NCBI GenBank assembly: GCA_038227875.1
Contig: JBBRPR010000013.1
Coordinates: 32,001 to 96,000, forward strand
Direction of reading: 5' to 3'
From: Planctomycetota bacterium
GTDB taxonomy: Bacteria; Planctomycetota; SZUA-567; H5-PLA8
DNA: 64,000 nt
A program made the translations under genes and the position numbers. The notes below the pieces were generated by a model that was not told the DNA's origin, did not search any database, and saw only the letters and a program-made list of their open reading frames with translations. This document shows, piece by piece, positions 21,255 to 28,400 of this stretch. Within the stretch, counting starts at the first letter, position 1. The number at the start of each line of letters is the position of its first letter.

Positions 21255-23222
21255 ATGCAACACTCACGCGCCACGGTTTCTTCCGGTCTTGTTATACTTG
21301 TACTATTCACGTGTGCGGGGGCGCATGCGGCCAACGATCCAACTCAAGCCAATGGGTATGATGCGGCGTGGGTGAGTTCCTGGGTGACGCATGGCCGCGC
21401 TGTGTACAAGACGTCGGGAAAGACCGCCGGATTTGTGCTGCAGGTCGGCGACTCGATCACGCATTCCAATCCGTACGCGCAGTGGCCGCGCTACGGTTCG
21501 GGAAAAACCAGCGCGGACTCGGCCCTGTGTACATGGTGTAATTCGAGCTCCTGGAATACCGGCTCGAACACCGACACGACCAACAAGAACGGCTGGTACC
21601 TGGCGGCTGCGGACACGACCGGCAATCGCGGGATGACGGCGTCGAGCGGAATCGCGTGCGACGAATACCTCTCCGGCAACAACAACAGCGGACCGGCGAT
21701 GCCCACCGACACCAGCGGTTCGGCGGGAACCACGCTGACCAACGCCACGTACACGGGCAACATACAGATCGACACGCTGGTCGCTACGTTTCCGGATGCG
21801 CAGTTTGTGGTCTTGATGCTGGGGACCAACGACATGAAGCAAGGGCGCACCGCCAGCGCGTTCGCCACGGACCTGGCAACGATTGTCGGGAAGTTCGAGA
21901 CCGGCAACGTGGTTGTGGTCTTGAGCACCATTCCGCCAAACAGTGGTCTCGACGTGACGCCGTTCAACGCGGCGATCCGGACCTACGCGCAGAATCACAG
22001 CTTGCCGCTGATCGATTACTACGCGGAGATTCTCGCGCGGCAACCCGGCACAGCGTGGCTGGGGACATTGATCGACAGCGCGGATGGCACGCACCCGACG
22101 GCGGGCGTCAACAGCTACTCCGCGGCGAGCGATCCGTACACGCCCGGGGGAAACGCCGCGAACTCGGTGACCGGCGATGCGTGTTTGAATTCCGGCTATC
22201 TGCTGCGGAGCTGGCTGACCGTGCAGAAACTAAAGCAAGTGAAGTCGTACATCGTCGACGGTGTCAATCCGCCGGTGCTGACGTCGATTGGCGTCACGCC
22301 GACGCCGGTGACGATCAACGCGGGGACAACGCAGCAGTTCACGGCGGTGGGCTACGATCAGTCCAACGCGCCGCTGGTTCCCCAGCCTACCTTTACCTGG
22401 AGCGTCGCGACGGGCGGCGGTTCGATCAGCGCGTCGGGATTGCTGACAGCCGGCAGTACCGCGGGGACATTTGCCGTCAGCGCCAAGAATGGCGCGGTGA
22501 CGGGAACCGGGTATGTGACTGTGAAAGTCACAGGGACGGGGACGGGGACGGGGACGGGAACGGGAACCGGCACTGGAACGGGAACTGGGACCGGGACAGG
22601 GACAGGAACTGGGACTGGCACGGGTACGGGCACAGGCACAGGGACAGGGACAGGGACCTCCACCGGAACGGGCACGAGCATAGGCACCGGAACCAGCACA
22701 GGTACTGGCACAGGCACAGGAACCGGGACCGGTGGTGGTGCGAGCCAGCCGACGCAACCGGGGATCACGAAGGCGACGGTGAAGTTTTCCGTGAAGCAGA
22801 GCGATCCGGTGGGCAGCAAGAGCCATTTTACGCTGACGATCCAAGCGTCGCCGCTGTTGGCTCAACTGCCGCAGACGACGAAAGGCAAGCCCAAGCCAAC
22901 GTTGGCGGGGTTGACGAGCGTGACGTTGTGGCTGGGGAGCGCGTCGTTCGATGCGCTGCTGGATGAGAAAGGCCACGCCGCGGCGTATTCCGTCAAACTG
23001 ACGGGAGGCAAAGCGCCGGCGATTGTGATTCAGACCAAGGGGATGAATTTGATTCCGCTGCTGAATCTGGATGCGGGTTCCGACGGTGCGAAGACGATCC
23101 CCGCGTCAATCGCCGCGATTGCAACGCGGCCGGACGGATCGCAGGTTGTTTTGTATAGCGGGTTCGGGTCGGCGGATGTGGTGAACTATGCGGTGAAAAA
23201 GGGCACGGCAGTGGCGAAGTAG
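21255..23222 (+). CDS. Secreted SGNH/GDSL hydrolase + Ig-like (Big_2-type) domain + Gly-Thr linker + C-terminal domain
   Basis: Signal peptide ending AHA|A; blocks QVGDSIT, MLGTND, DGTHP; Ig-like LTSIGVTP...[11 protein letters not shown]...FTWSV. Confidence 0.88.
22530..22730 (+). repeat. Coding (Thr-Gly)n repeat, about 67 aa
   Basis: ACN-GGN hexamer array with variable third codon positions. Confidence 0.95.
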
Positions 23223-23437
23223 CGGGGGCGCTCAGCGGATTCAGGGCATCGCGTATGATTCGTGTTTACCGCAAGTAATCTCTGTCCGGCTAAAAGTGGT
23301 CGGTCGTCGGTGCGGGGCTTGCATCGTATCTGAGGCGCAACGGCCAAATTCGCTTGAGCGTTTTCGCAATTTCCGTCCGGCTAATAGTTGTCGGTACTGA
23401 TTGGCTTAGCAGTCGCAGTGGGCGCGGCTGAAGCCAC

Positions 23438-23532
23438 AACCCTTACAGGGTTGCTCCGCGCGCTGGGGCATTTACCCAGGGTAGCGCTGCGGCGCAACCC
23501 TGGGCTTTATAGACATTAGCCCGTTGGGCTAA
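23438..23532. repeat. Three-hairpin REP-like element
   Basis: AACCCT-TAC-AGGGTT; CCCAGGGTAGCGC-TGCG-GCGCAACCCTGGG; TTAGCCC-GTT-GGGCTAA. Confidence 0.7.
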
Positions 23533-23656
23533 GTGGCTAAACGTGCTCGTCACTTCGCTCGATGGAGTTGCGGTATCGCGAAGCAACGTTTGCTCTCGCG
23601 GTAGAGATAGCGCCGAGCAGTTAAAGTATTCCGCACAGGAATTGGGGGTAGGCTGA

Positions 23657-23678
23657 CCGGGCGAGACGCCCGGACTAC
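23657..23678 (-). repeat. GTAG-type REP palindrome
   Basis: Minus strand reads GTAGT-CCGGGCG-TCT-CGCCCGG, i.e. a GTAG tetranucleotide followed by a hairpin. Confidence 0.6.
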
Positions 23679-25309: not shown

Positions 25310-25368
25310 CCCCCCCTTACTACTTCAATTTCTTGTCGAGTCGTCTGAGATTGACGTGCCGAACTATA

Positions 25369-25402
25369 GTCGGCTGGAACCTTGACACAAGTTCCAGCCG
25401 AC
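25369..25402. other. Intergenic 12-bp perfect stem between the adhesin and porin genes (terminator or mRNA-stabilising hairpin)
   Basis: GTCGGCTGGAAC-10 nt-GTTCCAGCCGAC. Confidence 0.55.
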
Positions 25403-25431
25403 ACTTGAGGACATTTTTTTACTTTTTGAAA

Positions 25432-28400
25432 TTAATGATAGAGCTGGCCGCCCACGTTCTTCCTGGCCTTATAGGTTTGCGGTGACCTTACGCCATAGGT
25501 GGAGGCGCCCAATTTGACGCTGATCTGAGCCGGGGCCAGCGCGGTCGCCTTTACGTCGGCATTGACCACGCCGGTCATGGAGTGCTGGATATCCATGTTG
25601 GAGAGCGTGAGCTGAACGCGCCAGTTCTTGCCGCTGCGCTGGACCTGGACGATTGCATTGCGCGTGCGGTAGCGGCCCTTGGCATCCAGCGTCGCATTGA
25701 AGATGTAGCCGTTGAGCCTGAACTGCGTGGGCAGGTTGGCAGGGTTGAAATCGGCGGGCAGCGCCAGTGTCGTCAGGAAGACCAGGCGATCGGCGTTGGC
25801 CTTGCGGAAGTTGAAGCGTGCGGCGAAGCACTGGACCGCGTTGACCTTCAGATCGCTGCCACCGGACAAGGAGACCATCGACAGGTCGTTCTGATCGATG
25901 ACGCTGTCGTTGGGCGTGGAGTTCGGGTCCATCTGGTCGGAGCTGGAGACCTGCGCCACGTTCATGATTTCACCTTCTTGAACCACCTTGGTGGCCAGCG
26001 TCAGGACTTTGACTTCACCCACCTTGACGGTGCCGACCGTCCAGATGCCGGTGTCGCTGGCGAAGGCGCCCTGCGTCGCCGACGAGGAGACGTACTCCAG
26101 GCCCGCGGGGAGTTGGTCGGAGACGGCGACATTCGTTGCGATATCCGGACCGGCGTTGGTCAAGGTGATCGTGTACGTCGCGATGCCGCCGAAGTCGACC
26201 TTGGTGCTATCGACGGTCTTGGTCAACATCAGATCCGCCAGCTGCGGCGTTACCGTGGCCGACGCCGTGTTGTCGTCTGGGTTGGTGTCGGGCTGGTCGC
26301 TGCTGGTGAGCGAGACGACGTTGGTCAGCGAGTTGATCACGGTCAGGTGCGTACCGACCGTCAGCGTCGCCGACGCGCCGTTGATCAGCGTGCCGAGCGT
26401 CCACTTGCCGCTGGCCGCGTCGTAACTTCCCTGCGAGGCGGTGGCACTGACGAAGTCCAGACCCACTGGCAGCAGATCCGTGTAGACGACGCTAGTCGCC
26501 GTGTTCGGCCCCTGGTTGGTGACCTTGATGGTGAAGGTCGCCAGGTCGACGCGGCTGGGATGATTGTTGTCCACCACCTTGGTGACAGCGAGATTCATCT
26601 TCTCGGCAAGCGTGGTGACGCTGGCCTGATCGTCTTCGGTCGGGACGTGGTTGTTGGGCGTGGAATCGATGTCCGGCTGGTCGCAGGCGGTGACTTCGGC
26701 GGTGTTGGTGATGGCGTTGACGGTGATCACCTTGGCCTGGATTTGGAGCGTGGCGTTGCCATTGCTGGTGAGCGTGCCGACCGACCAGAGACCAGTGCCG
26801 TTGACAAAGCTTCCCTGCGACGGCGTGGAGCCGACGAAGACGAGACCGGCCGGCAACACGTCGGTGACGTCGACATGAGTGGCCGTATTCGGTCCGGCGT
26901 TGGAGACCTTGACCGTGTAGGTAACGACATCGTTGAGGTTGGGCGTGCTGTTGTCGATGACCTTGGTCAGCGACAGATCCACGAGCTGAGCGGCGATGGT
27001 GGCGCTGGCCTGGTCGTCTTCCGTCGGCACGTGATTGTTGGGCGTCGAATCGCTATCCGGCTGGTCGCAGGCGGTGACTTCGGCGGTGTTGGTCACGGCG
27101 TTGACGGTGAGGACCGTGGCCTTGAGCTGCAGCGTGGCGTTGCCGTTGCTGGTGAGCGTACCGACCGTCCAGATGCCGGTGCCGCTGACGAAACTTCCCT
27201 GCGACGGCGTGGCGCTGACGAAGCCGAGCGCCGCGGGGAGCACGTCGGTGACGGCGACGTTGGTGGCGGTGTTCGGCCCGGCATTGGAGACCTGAATCGT
27301 GAACGTGACCACGTCGTTGATGTTGGGGTTGGTGATGTCGACGACTTTCGTCAGCGAGAGGTCCACGATCTGGCCGGCGATGGTGGCGCTGGCCTGGTCG
27401 TCTTCCGACGGGAGGTGGTTGTTGGGCGTCGAATCGCTATCCGGCTGGTCGCAGGCGGTGACTTCGGCGGTGTTGGTCACGGCATTGACCGTAAGGACCG
27501 TGGCTTGGATCAGCAGCGTGGCGCTGCCGTTTTTGGCGAGCGTGCCGACCGTCCAGATGCCGGTGCCGCTGACGTAGCTGCCCTGCGAGGGGGTCGAGCC
27601 GACGAAGCCGACTCCCGCGGGCAGTATGTCGGTGACAGCGACGTTGGTGGCGGTATTCGGTCCGGCGTTGGAGACCGTGATCGTGTAGGTGATCACGTCA
27701 TTGATATTCGGGTTGGTGATGTCGACGACTTTCGTCAGCGAGAGGTCCACGATCTGGCCGGCGATGGTCACGCTGGCCTGGTCGTCTTCTCCGGGAGCAT
27801 TGTTGCCGGGCGTCGAATCCGGATCGGGCTGATCGCAAGCGCTGACTTGGGCTGTGTTGGTCACCGCGCTGACCGTGAGCACAGTGGCCTTGATCTGCAA
27901 GGTCTTGTTGGCGCCGCTGGCGATCGTACCCACGGTCCAAATGCTCGTACCGTTGTTGTAGCTGCCCTGCGAGGCGAGCGACGAGACGAAGCTTATGCCC
28001 GCTGGCAGAACGTCGGTGACGGCCACGTTGGTCGCAGTATCGGGACCGGAGTTGAAAACGGTGATCGTGTAGGTGATCACGTCATTGATGTTCGGGTTGG
28101 GGATGTCCACGGTCTTGGTCAGCGAGAGATCGCAGGTGATGAAGTGCTTGCCGAAGAGGTAGTTGGCCGCCGTCACGCCGGCGGGCAAGTTGAGGTTGAT
28201 GTGATCGTTGGGCGCGCTGAAGGTCGTGCCGCCTTGCGTGCCAACGGTATTGATGCCGCTGCTATAGCCGGGGGGATTGGTGGGTTCCGTCAGCGTGTAG
28301 CCGCTGACGTCGCTGGGGCGCAGCCCGAGGAAGCTGAAGAACCCGTTGACGTCGGTGTTAATGGTCAGCGACACGGCATTGCCGAGGTCGTCGTTGCCGG

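Follow-up and report, generated by a model that had tools for sequence, protein, structure and literature searches.

Two otherwise unrelated exported proteins carry tails that are diverged copies of one uncatalogued, lineage-restricted domain superfamily. The main form (t2) is a strictly C-terminal module on approximately 100 multidomain enzymes and adhesins of this planctomycete that are exported by Sec and are acidic apart from the domain, and the other form (t1) is a small divergent side branch with the same fold. One protein of each kind is encoded in the window, i.e., the whole stretch of 64,000 nucleotides analyzed in the present study. We propose that the domain is an envelope localization tag that retains proteins non-covalently on the cell envelope following Sec export, a reading to which we give about an even chance of being correct.

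Gene A (21255..23222, + strand) encodes an exported SGNH/GDSL esterase of 655 aa (ORF and translation; PF13472, E 2e-10, and PF00657). Its putative signal peptide of 25 aa (21255..21329, +; ...CAGAHA/AN), read directly in the translation and called by a hydrophobicity heuristic, is followed by the SGNH domain, a Big_2-like Ig domain (residues ~340-425, labelled by eye and not called by Pfam), a Gly-Thr linker, and the t1 tail (22761..23219, +; HMM core 22812-23216). The linker is encoded by imperfect 6-base repeats (22533..22730, +; TRF period 6, 20.8 copies, 84% and 72% matches), and elsewhere in the genome a cupredoxin protein (L064) has a linker of this kind in front of its t1 domain. Gene B (25432..36462, - strand) is a 3676-aa ORF for a giant adhesin-like repeat protein, in which Pfam identified DUF11 (seven copies), SdrD_B (three copies), SpaA-like, and Cna-B-like domains. 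Its start is likely Met31 at 36372, followed by a predicted signal peptide (36307-36372, -); the signal-peptide-like segment MRLRPSWFLVVSALVITPALFA/AN was read from the translation from this Met. The protein ends in the t2 tail (25435..25869, -; HMM core 25447-25818). The ORFs and translations thus place both genes and both tails where the earlier note had put them, and signal-peptide-like N-termini on both proteins agree with the Sec signals that it had reported.

The similarity between t1 and t2 is weak at the pairwise level (BLASTP E 0.026, 20/66 identities). Moreover, the t2 HMM did not directly pick up the t1 tail in a search of the genome ORFs, and hhalign left approximately the first 28 profile positions unaligned. 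These results speak for the tails having no common origin and being unrelated basic, beta-rich segments with a compositional resemblance. However, profile-profile comparisons aligned t1 with t2 at a probability of 91.8% with in-genome profiles (E 7e-7, 91 columns), 96.4% with broader profiles (E 1.3e-9, 92 columns), and 95.7% with MAFFT alignments A4 and A1 (E 8.8e-9, 94 columns). Since the controls (gene B DUF11 repeats and reversed alignments) reached 0.5% at most (E>=0.12), we regard this match as specific. Furthermore, one ORF (C3:241958-243742) was matched by both HMMs and forms a bridge between the two forms. The AlphaFold2 (AF2) models of t1 and t2 agree in strand order and have a short helix at an equivalent place, and 15 of the 50 PDB entries listed as fold matches are common to both. 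Either tail is also found on homologous esterases, as described below. We consider a separate origin of the two tails to be very improbable. The shared tail domain claimed for these proteins was therefore confirmed, by the profile-profile match and not by pairwise BLASTP. Among the four motif pairs previously listed in its favor, three were aligned together by hhalign, including the pair with VQLTLSNMDI as a partner and the pair VNYAVKKG/QTYKARKN, whereas the first pair, with FAARFNFRK, fell outside the alignment.

Both tails are predicted by AF2 to form a beta sandwich of 11-12 strands and approximately 135 residues (t1, pLDDT 93.6 and pTM 0.87; t2, pLDDT 93.0 and pTM 0.85), which is shorter than the 140-150 aa estimated earlier. 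The structure matches of these models were generic (best Z 5.9 and 7.1) and say nothing about the function of the domain. The tails are basic, with a pI of 9.7 for t1 and 10.8 for t2 (net charge +13); together with the all-beta models, these values bear out the earlier description of the tails as basic and beta-rich. Among 93 proteins with the t2-type domain, the domain had a median pI of 10.1, a net charge of +10, and a Lys content of 9.4%, while the parts upstream had a pI of 4.9 and a Lys content of 1.8%. Strongly conserved columns hold approximately 4.5 of the approximately 16 positive charges in the domain. Searches of both tails against Pfam and NCBIfam at E<=10, which covered PEP-CTERM, LPXTG, T9SS, and autotransporter models, returned chance-level rows at most, and no Pfam, NCBIfam, or PDB relative of the domain was found. 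The domain may accordingly be called uncatalogued, which agrees with the earlier suggestion of a candidate undescribed signal. The sequences, both databases, and the AF2 models also support the statement that neither tail has a transmembrane helix, LPXTG, PEP-CTERM, or an autotransporter barrel. We rejected a PEP-CTERM/LPXTG-type signal because neither tail contains a hydrophobic helix or has an NCBIfam match and the whole tail is a predicted beta sandwich. A 12-strand autotransporter membrane barrel was similarly rejected: there was no Pfam match, and the models are soluble sandwiches of approximately 135 aa.

A converged HMM iteration identified 108 t2 ORFs in the source genome (88% complete), counted as stop-to-stop frames rather than curated genes, and the domain ended within 15 residues of the stop in 100 of them. 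In the other eight, apparently internal cases, the domain is followed by an extension of 164-188 aa, which matched the t2 HMM weakly in two (1.3e-4 and 4.7e-3). A signal-peptide-like N-terminus was called in approximately 92/108 ORFs by a crude, home-made hydrophobicity heuristic with visible false calls. Public data contained 2861 t2 clusters among 1.84 billion representatives; t2 was C-terminal in 148 of the 150 best representatives and occurred in tandem copies in 6/150. Within Planctomycetota, the domain was present in 23 of the 251 genomes sampled. The usual C-terminus is ...G-K-S-G-x-x-K-COOH. The last residue was Lys in 60/100 of the in-genome ORFs (Lys or Arg in 68/100) and in 109/150 public representatives (Lys or Arg in 124/150). 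The usual context is a PKD domain followed by a Gly/Thr/Ser/Pro linker and then t2. Pfam was used to scan the cargo of 40 carriers, i.e., every second of 88 C-terminal carriers of 350-1800 aa. PKD domains were found in 31 of these, and the other cargo included NHL and Kelch propellers, GSDH, beta-helix, GH44, GH113, trypsin, subtilase, C10 peptidase, PATR repeats, cadherin-like domains, and DUF4394.

The t1 family is smaller, with six ORFs detected by HMM in the genome and a presence in 8/41 related genomes. It is N-terminal on an ice-binding-like protein, a position kept in genome G008, and is also found as secreted proteins that consist of the domain alone and in two circularly permuted forms. 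The expectation of many matches, always C-terminal, on signal-peptide proteins with varied N-terminal domains consequently held for t2, but not for t1. An SGNH homologue in a sister genus (G001), with a passenger that is 56% identical, ends in t2 (E 4e-13). A closer SGNH homologue (62%) has PKD and the start of a t2-like domain, after which the contig ends. Since homologous esterases carry either tail, we read t1 and t2 as doing the same job.

These features led us to envelope retention as the preferred function. Sec would export the passenger with the domain attached, and the basic sandwich would then attach to something anionic in the envelope; lipopolysaccharide, other acidic glycans, and a membrane face are possible partners. 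In this way, the acidic passenger would stay on or within the envelope rather than diffuse away, and t1 and t2 would serve the same role. This reading draws on the N-terminal, stand-alone, and permuted forms of t1 and on the occasional tandem copies of t2, which are more easily explained by a binding or retention module than by an export signal that is purely terminal. We thus consider a retention module to be more likely than a pure secretion signal. However, a terminal recognition signal would explain the near-absolute terminal position of t2 and its conserved last Lys no less well than a binding module would. Fibrobacter enzymes, whose basic terminal domain has a pI > 9, offer an analogy in favor of retention, in that this domain was for a long time considered a candidate surface anchor (PMC6851124). 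According to the same source, however, it proved to act as an export signal of T9SS rather than as a simple anchor, which counts against retention. The t2 form may additionally be read by an outer-membrane export step.

A full version of the latter idea is that t2 is the recognition element of a dedicated outer-membrane export or attachment pathway, analogous to the T9SS C-terminal domain (CTD) and possibly removed after transport, with the t1 forms as secondary derivatives. The terminal position in the genome and in the public representatives, the conserved basic last residue, and the very wide range of cargo, among which are degradative enzymes that have to exit the periplasm, all argue for such a pathway. 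So do the PATR-repeat proteins that the domain terminates. Repeats of this kind usually belong to the passengers of autotransporters, in which one would expect a barrel. Furthermore, the CTDs of T9SS are themselves terminal beta sandwiches of basic charge (PMC6851124). Nevertheless, no machinery was found, and a terminal signal is difficult to reconcile with the tandem copies of the domain and with a t1 branch that may be N-terminal, stand-alone, or permuted. Families enriched within 6 kb of 114 carrier genes were regulators and a dioxygenase family, with no envelope proteins among them. We regard this pathway as a rather unlikely explanation.

Two candidates for the machinery had been suggested within the window. 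The first is a Porin_O_P-like outer-membrane barrel of 510 aa (23777..25309, -; PF07396, E 5e-11) that lies between the two genes and comes next after gene B on the - strand; a longer ORF on the opposite strand (23714..25348, +) looks spurious. The order of a CTD protein followed by the porin is kept in G001 and G008 (three genera in all), and three of the nine paralogous porin loci in the genome adjoin CTD genes. However, the porin family also occurs in three related genomes with 0-1 copies of the domain, and only the gene order of gene B and the porin is conserved; the link is therefore weak. The second candidate is the T2SS/T4P-like cluster at 55-62 kb, which contains a secretin (55325..57253, -; PF00263, E 3e-33) and two T2SSE-type ATPase genes (58996-60618 and 60489-61895, together 58996..61895, -; PF00437, E 2e-118 and 8e-46). 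Orthologues of the secretin at 58-65% identity were present in only 5 of the 13 domain-positive genomes of the family. The secretin does not co-vary with the domain, which argues against this apparatus.

Components of T9SS were also searched for, with mostly silent controls drawn from genomes without a clear T9SS organism and in searched genomes that are 86-95% complete. NF033710, TIGR04189, PF12081, and PF14349, which include the PorV, SprA_N, and GldM models, had no match in the source genome (G000), with weak controls. GldM and SprA_N (PF12081 and PF14349) were also silent in the other domain-rich genomes searched (G001, G008, G009, and G015; five with G000). Por_Secre_tail (PF18962) had no match in the whole genome in a search with a control that was also silent.

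Among the closest known systems is the T9SS type A CTD (PF18962/TIGR04183), including the Fibrobacter BTD/Fpm-1. It is also a terminal beta sandwich on many Sec-exported proteins with unrelated passengers, frequently follows PKD or Ig domains, and has a conserved extreme C-terminus; the last residues of the RgpB CTD reportedly matter. T9SS CTDs are approximately 70-100 aa, with seven strands in a compact Ig-like sandwich, whereas the present domain has approximately 135 aa and 11-12 predicted strands. The two are alike in being basic, with a pI > 9 for BTD (PMC6851124) and a median pI of 10.1 here. None of 12 tails (t1 and t2 plus the 10 highest-ranking members of the family) matched PF18962 or TIGR04183 at E<=10, and T9SS CTD structures were absent from the listed fold matches of the tail models. 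Furthermore, PorV, SprA, or GldM was not found with the domain in searches with weak controls, and its side branch t1 may be N-terminal, alone, or permuted. As the earlier note had stated, the domain differs from this CTD in its sequence and probably also in its size.

Carbohydrate-binding modules (CBMs) and other sandwiches appended to secreted hydrolases are also independent modules on flexible linkers, sometimes in tandem, and the t1 branch resembles them in occurring at either end. The domain may be a CBM-like or adhesive module that directs its passenger not to the envelope of the producing cell but to anionic material outside it, for example mineral, detritus, or a polysaccharide that is sulfated or acidic. 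The fold, its place after PKD and linkers, the tandem copies, the variable position of t1, the strong positive charge, and GH44 and GH113 among the carriers are consistent with this possibility. However, a glycoside hydrolase domain was found in only 2 of the 40 scanned carriers, most of which are not CAZymes (proteases, propellers, adhesin repeats, and esterases), and the carriers in the window are an esterase and an adhesin. Approximately 100 copies per genome, mixed cargo, and a fixed terminal position with a conserved free C-terminus in the main branch are unusual for a CBM, and we consider external targeting to be improbable. A catalogued CBM was rejected because no Pfam CBM matched at E<=10 beyond chance level and the carriers are mostly not carbohydrate-active; these Pfam searches did not yield the described CBM family that the earlier note had named as a refutation.

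Ca2+-stabilized Ig-like adhesin repeats are a further system for comparison. MpAFP region II (PDB 4p99) matched the t1 profile weakly (whole-sequence E 1.1e-5, positions 15-58), with no single stretch passing, and one t2 member matched NF033510 (Ca_tandemer) at E 0.045 (14.1 bits against a cut-off of 50 bits). These weak sequence matches suggest that the domain may have descended from bacterial Ig-like repeats. However, the match spans only a beta-hairpin motif, and, unlike the basic, terminal, and larger domain described here, the repeats are acidic and lie internally in tandem. PEP-CTERM/exosortase and LPXTG/sortase signals are short motifs with a transmembrane helix and a basic tip, in contrast to the folded, soluble domain of 135 aa described here. 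The resemblance is that in both cases a C-terminal element is common to numerous exported proteins within one lineage. Elsewhere, DUF3494 ice-binding proteins bear PEP-CTERM (PMC7783341), whereas the ice-binding-like protein of the present genome bears t1.

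The esterase gene (21255..23222, + strand; 655 aa) encodes an exported protein of the GDSL/SGNH type (PF13472, 2e-10), in which a signal peptide is followed by the catalytic domain, an Ig-like stretch, a Gly-Thr linker, and a 153-aa tail, designated t1. The Ig-like stretch reads to us as Big_2-like, and no call was made for it by Pfam. The linker (22533-22730, +) is encoded by imperfect 6-base repeats; it comprises approximately 35 dipeptides, and its hexanucleotide repeats show synonymous variation. A similar Gly-Thr linker precedes t1 in an unrelated cupredoxin protein of the same genome (L064; G000:C62:5950-7107, -). 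The giant adhesin-like repeat protein (25432..36462, -) is a 3676-aa ORF with seven DUF11 and three SdrD_B domains; its start is probably Met31 of the ORF, and it terminates in a 145-aa tail, t2. A Porin_O_P-like barrel (23777..25309, -) is encoded between the two genes, directly downstream of the adhesin gene on the same strand. It is faced by a longer ORF (23714..25348, +; 544 aa, Arg/Val/Ala-rich, without a family), which most likely represents a high-GC shadow frame and not a gene. Elsewhere in the window, 7525-9570 (+) encodes a restriction-modification fusion related to Eco57I/MmeI in type (Eco57I, N6_Mtase, and TaqI_C domains), and no Pfam family was found at E<=1e-5 for the ORFs 2129-4849 (+), 9729-13199 (+), 17433-18992 (-), and 57271-58971 (+) (906, 1156, 519, and 566 aa, respectively), the last of which lies inside a secretin/ATPase cluster.

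The earlier note claimed that the esterase and the adhesin share one tail domain. The pairwise match between t1 and t2 is weak (BLASTP E 0.026, 20/66 identities), and a family was therefore built for each tail from the genome to which the window belongs (9.34 Mb in 176 contigs, with a completeness of 88%; stop-to-stop ORFs of at least 80 aa). Iterated HMM searches of this genome converged at 108 ORFs for t2 and 6 for t1, and the t2 HMM did not directly reach the t1 tail. The two profiles were aligned by hhalign at 91.8% (E 7e-7, 91 columns) with in-genome members, at 96.4% (E 1.3e-9, 92 columns) after the addition of relatives and public representatives, and at 95.7% (E 8.8e-9, 94 columns) with independent MAFFT alignments of t1 (A4) and t2 (A1), whereas the controls, for which the alignments were reversed or the adhesin's DUF11 repeats were used, remained at or below 0.5% (E >=0.12). 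One ORF (C3:241958-243742) was matched by both HMMs. AlphaFold2 predicted all-beta folds for t2 (pLDDT 93.0, pTM 0.85) and t1 (pLDDT 93.6, pTM 0.87), each with 11-12 strands in identical order and a short helix at the equal place, and 15 of 50 entries were common to their VIA-align lists. The claim of a common domain was thus confirmed. Among the four colinear motif pairs on which it had been based, three were aligned between A4 and A1; however, the first falls in N-terminal strands that the profiles left unaligned. We concluded that t1 and t2 belong to one uncatalogued, lineage-restricted, basic beta-sandwich superfamily, and the demonstrated connection of the esterase-type (t1) branch with the main (t2) family is new.

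Neither Pfam-A nor NCBIfam held a family for t1, t2, or the ten best members at E<=10, chance-level rows aside. The t2 profile found nothing among all PDB sequences, while that of t1 gave only a weak multi-repeat match to the Ig-like tandemer of MpAFP region II (E 1.1e-5), with no single stretch passing. Foldseek found nothing in the PDB at E<=0.001 for either model. The best VIA-align Z scores, 5.9 for t2 and 7.1 for t1 (mouse ZP2 ZP-N domains), are within the range that the tool calls common, and the partners are assorted Ig-like sandwiches. The ESM Atlas returned only unnamed clusters, most commonly from Planctomycetota, with a recognition score below the tool's mark. Source names were obtained for four of ten looked-up clusters: two are a "hypothetical protein", one is a "parallel beta-helix repeat protein", and one is a "PKD repeat protein"; the entry of a fifth consists of a stray character. 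The full-text literature searched, the coverage of which excludes subscription journals, did not describe the domain. By these searches, the domain is uncatalogued.

The search for further C-terminal copies extended well beyond the 108 ORFs of this genome. When 1.84 billion representative proteins were searched with the profile, 2861 clusters matched at E<=0.001; the thresholds of E<=1e-10 and E<=1e-30 were passed by 2247 and 338, respectively. Of the best 150 representatives, six have two copies; with the second copy counted in these, the domain ended within 15 residues of the C-terminus in 148. The domain was present in 17 of the 41 related genomes (the window's own included). These are 14 of the 16 genomes of the same family, with scored matches up to at least 98, and both genomes of a second family of the order; the 22 genomes from other families of the order and class had none. 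Within the same family, G002 (one copy) and G010 and G007 (none), all 91-93% complete, were nearly or entirely without it. The relative G017, flagged as unpublished, contributed only SGNH hits and one genome without a domain match to these tallies, and none of the conclusions rests on it. Across the phylum, with no more than 16 candidates scored per genome, 23 of 251 sampled genomes matched at E<=1e-5, representing about seven families.

The t2 branch is strictly terminal on diverse exported cargo, as the note anticipated for a domain borne by signal-peptide proteins with varied N-terminal parts. In the window's genome, the domain ended within 15 residues of the stop codon in 100 of 108 ORFs, mostly 3-4 residues from it. 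The remaining eight continue for 164-188 residues; the t2 HMM matched two of these extensions weakly (domain E 1.3e-4 and 4.7e-3) and the others at 0.05 or worse. The extensions read as degenerate second copies, which would make these proteins tandem forms. Approximately 92 of the 108 ORFs have a signal-peptide-like N-terminus according to a simple hydrophobicity heuristic, a few calls of which are visibly wrong; three of the ORFs are cut by contig ends. A Pfam scan was performed on 40 carriers, namely every second one by E-value rank among the 88 C-terminal carriers of 350-1800 aa. The passengers were highly mixed and comprised NHL and Kelch propellers, glucose/sorbosone dehydrogenase, beta-helix, GH44, GH113, trypsin, subtilase, C10 peptidase, PATR repeats, cadherin-like repeats, and DUF4394, and one carrier lacked any Pfam domain. 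A PKD domain was present in 31 of the 40, in most directly before the tail; the adhesin of the window is a carrier without one. A module for binding substrates would agree with the fold and modularity of the domain; however, this cargo does not fit such a role, and we consider it improbable.

By our reading of the alignments, the t2 domain follows a Gly/Thr/Ser/Ala/Pro-rich linker, opens with a strand resembling P-[ML]-T-[VL]-S-K, and usually ends in Y-x-A-K-x-G-K-S-G-x-x-K. Lys occupies the last position in 60 of the 100 in-genome members and in 109 of the 150 public representatives; when Arg is counted as well, the figures are 68 and 124. The domain is markedly basic (n=93; median pI 10.1, 89 of 93 above pI 9, net charge +10, 9.4% Lys), in contrast to the up to 600 residues that precede it (median pI 4.9, 1.8% Lys); the window tails have pI values of 9.7 (t1) and 10.8 (t2). 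Approximately 4.5 of the ~16 positive charges per domain are located in six well-conserved columns, and the remainder are scattered over ~20 moderately basic columns.

The t1 type is rare, with the six in-genome ORFs and 1-6 matches each in 8 of the 41 related genomes, and is free in position; the expectation that the domain is always C-terminal fails for this branch. It is C-terminal after a Gly-Thr linker in the esterase and the cupredoxin protein (PF00127), and N-terminal, directly after the signal peptide, in an ice-binding-like protein (Big_5 and PF11999) and in two proteins of the relative G008 (L067 and L075). It also constitutes entire small secreted proteins of 177-214 aa in the window's genome and four relatives (G001, G003, G008, and G015). 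Two further small signal-peptide proteins (L054, G000:C99:12545-13246, -; L055, G000:C2:77044-77730, -) are circularly permuted, with HMM positions 48-136 first and positions 2-58 at the C-terminus. Separately, four paralogues of 550-640 aa without a Pfam domain (L060-L063; G000: C10:82272-84065, C3:241958-243742, C87:15113-16756, and C1:239372-241285) have an internal domain that is intermediate between the two types, and the ~165-190 residues after it may represent a second, degenerate copy; these proteins also have relatives in G005 and G015.

The SGNH part of the esterase has two close homologues in the relative G001. The first (56% identical, 1059 aa) has a long repeat region in the middle, Calx-beta-like by our reading, then a PKD-resembling stretch and a terminal t2-type domain (E 4e-13, residues 925-1056 of 1059). 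In the second (62% identical), Ig-like repeats that look Big_2-like by eye are followed by a stretch resembling PKD and a Gly-rich linker, and its last 22 residues before the contig end resemble, by eye only, a t2-type start. These sequences indicate that t1 and t2 are exchangeable on homologous esterases. This tail swap and the position-free t1 architectures are new. Orthologues of a GH44 carrier, sought in domain-poor genomes for what replaces the tail, were not matched.

A partner was searched for among neighbouring genes using 6859 crude ORFs, 918 of which lie within 6 kb of 114 carrier genes (background 13.4%); this crude set lacks genes that are covered in part by longer spurious frames, the porin itself among them. 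The most enriched families were ECF sigma/anti-sigma fusions (19/73; for example, G000:C13:120197-121714, +, and G000:C101:14893-15759, +), AraC regulators (22/82), and PhyH-like dioxygenases (10/41); the first two families hint at a regulator of its own for many a carrier. No envelope machine was present among the families enriched within this distance. The T2SS/T4P-like cluster named in the note as possible machinery is real (secretin, 55325-57253; two T2SSE ATPases); however, of the 13 genomes of the family that have the domain, only 5 contain an orthologue of the secretin at 58-65% identity. For example, the query found no high-identity orthologue in G008, which is 89% complete and has 95 domain matches (a paralogue at 32% identity was the only hit), or in G004, which is 93% complete and has 25. 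The secretin does not co-vary with the domain and was rejected as its partner, a negative result that is also new.

The porin between the two genes, the other suggested machinery, gave a divided result. The order of a large protein ending in t2 and then the porin is kept at the two closest orthologous loci, in G001 (L125, C76) and G008 (L126, C47), and hence in three genera with the window; this conserved order is a new finding. The two genes are on the same strand, ~110 bases apart. However, the porin family occurs in all 16 family genomes, including G002, G007, and G010 (1, 0, and 0 domain copies). Carriers are directly beside three of its nine paralogous loci in the window's genome and, elsewhere, beside 2 of the 14 loci of best homologues, namely the orthologous ones in G001 and G008; a further 20 paralogue loci in G001, G008, and G009 include 2 that lie within 1.6 kb of a carrier. 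The total, 7 of 43 against a rough expectation of ~7% in domain-rich genomes, is a weak excess, and the porin was not retained as a general partner. A predicted complex of porin residues 24-510 with the t2 tail scored 0.00, which gives no answer either way. We take the pairing to be real and specific to this adhesin and do not count it in favor of a general receptor; the porin may be an adhesin-specific outer-membrane partner.

We infer that the domain is a localisation tag. Retention on an anionic envelope component is the role we favor, with about even confidence, because the domain varies in position, also stands alone, and occurs permuted and in tandem, because the positive charge is partly diffuse and set against acidic passengers, and because no co-varying machinery was found.

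Protein placement in the unusual envelope of Planctomycetota is poorly understood, and we know of no cargo signals beyond Sec signals and PEP-CTERM-type tags. A strongly basic folded tail that marks ~100 exported enzymes and adhesins per genome, and ~2900 public protein clusters, offers a practical handle: proteins with a common destination can be predicted from it, it may be used in reporter fusions, and its partner, ligand or machine, can be fished for. It would also give an annotation to these clusters, for which the few source names seen were of the kind "hypothetical protein" or "PKD repeat protein". If the partner is an envelope polymer, a new kind of non-covalent surface anchor would result; if it is a new translocon, a new secretion system.

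A serious rival of retention is that the domain would be a signal dedicated to export by an unknown route across the outer membrane. The strictly terminal position of the main branch and its conserved last residue argue for such a signal; however, the lack of co-varying machinery argues against it, and we regard it as rather unlikely. A distinctly doubtful extension is that the domain would be the address label of an undescribed route for outer-membrane export and surface attachment in some Planctomycetota, with members of the lineage's Porin_O_P-like barrel family as the receptor or anchor; one such barrel is encoded directly after the adhesin gene, in an order kept in three genera. Such a route would perform the task of the T9SS with none of its parts. 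Models for T9SS parts found nothing, with weak positive controls. A precedent for an export signal is the Fibrobacter basic terminal domain (BTD), columns for which appear in the enzyme tables of PMC3079729. According to PMC6851124, the BTD was long taken for an anchor and proved to be a T9SS signal. The t2 domain is likewise basic and terminal.
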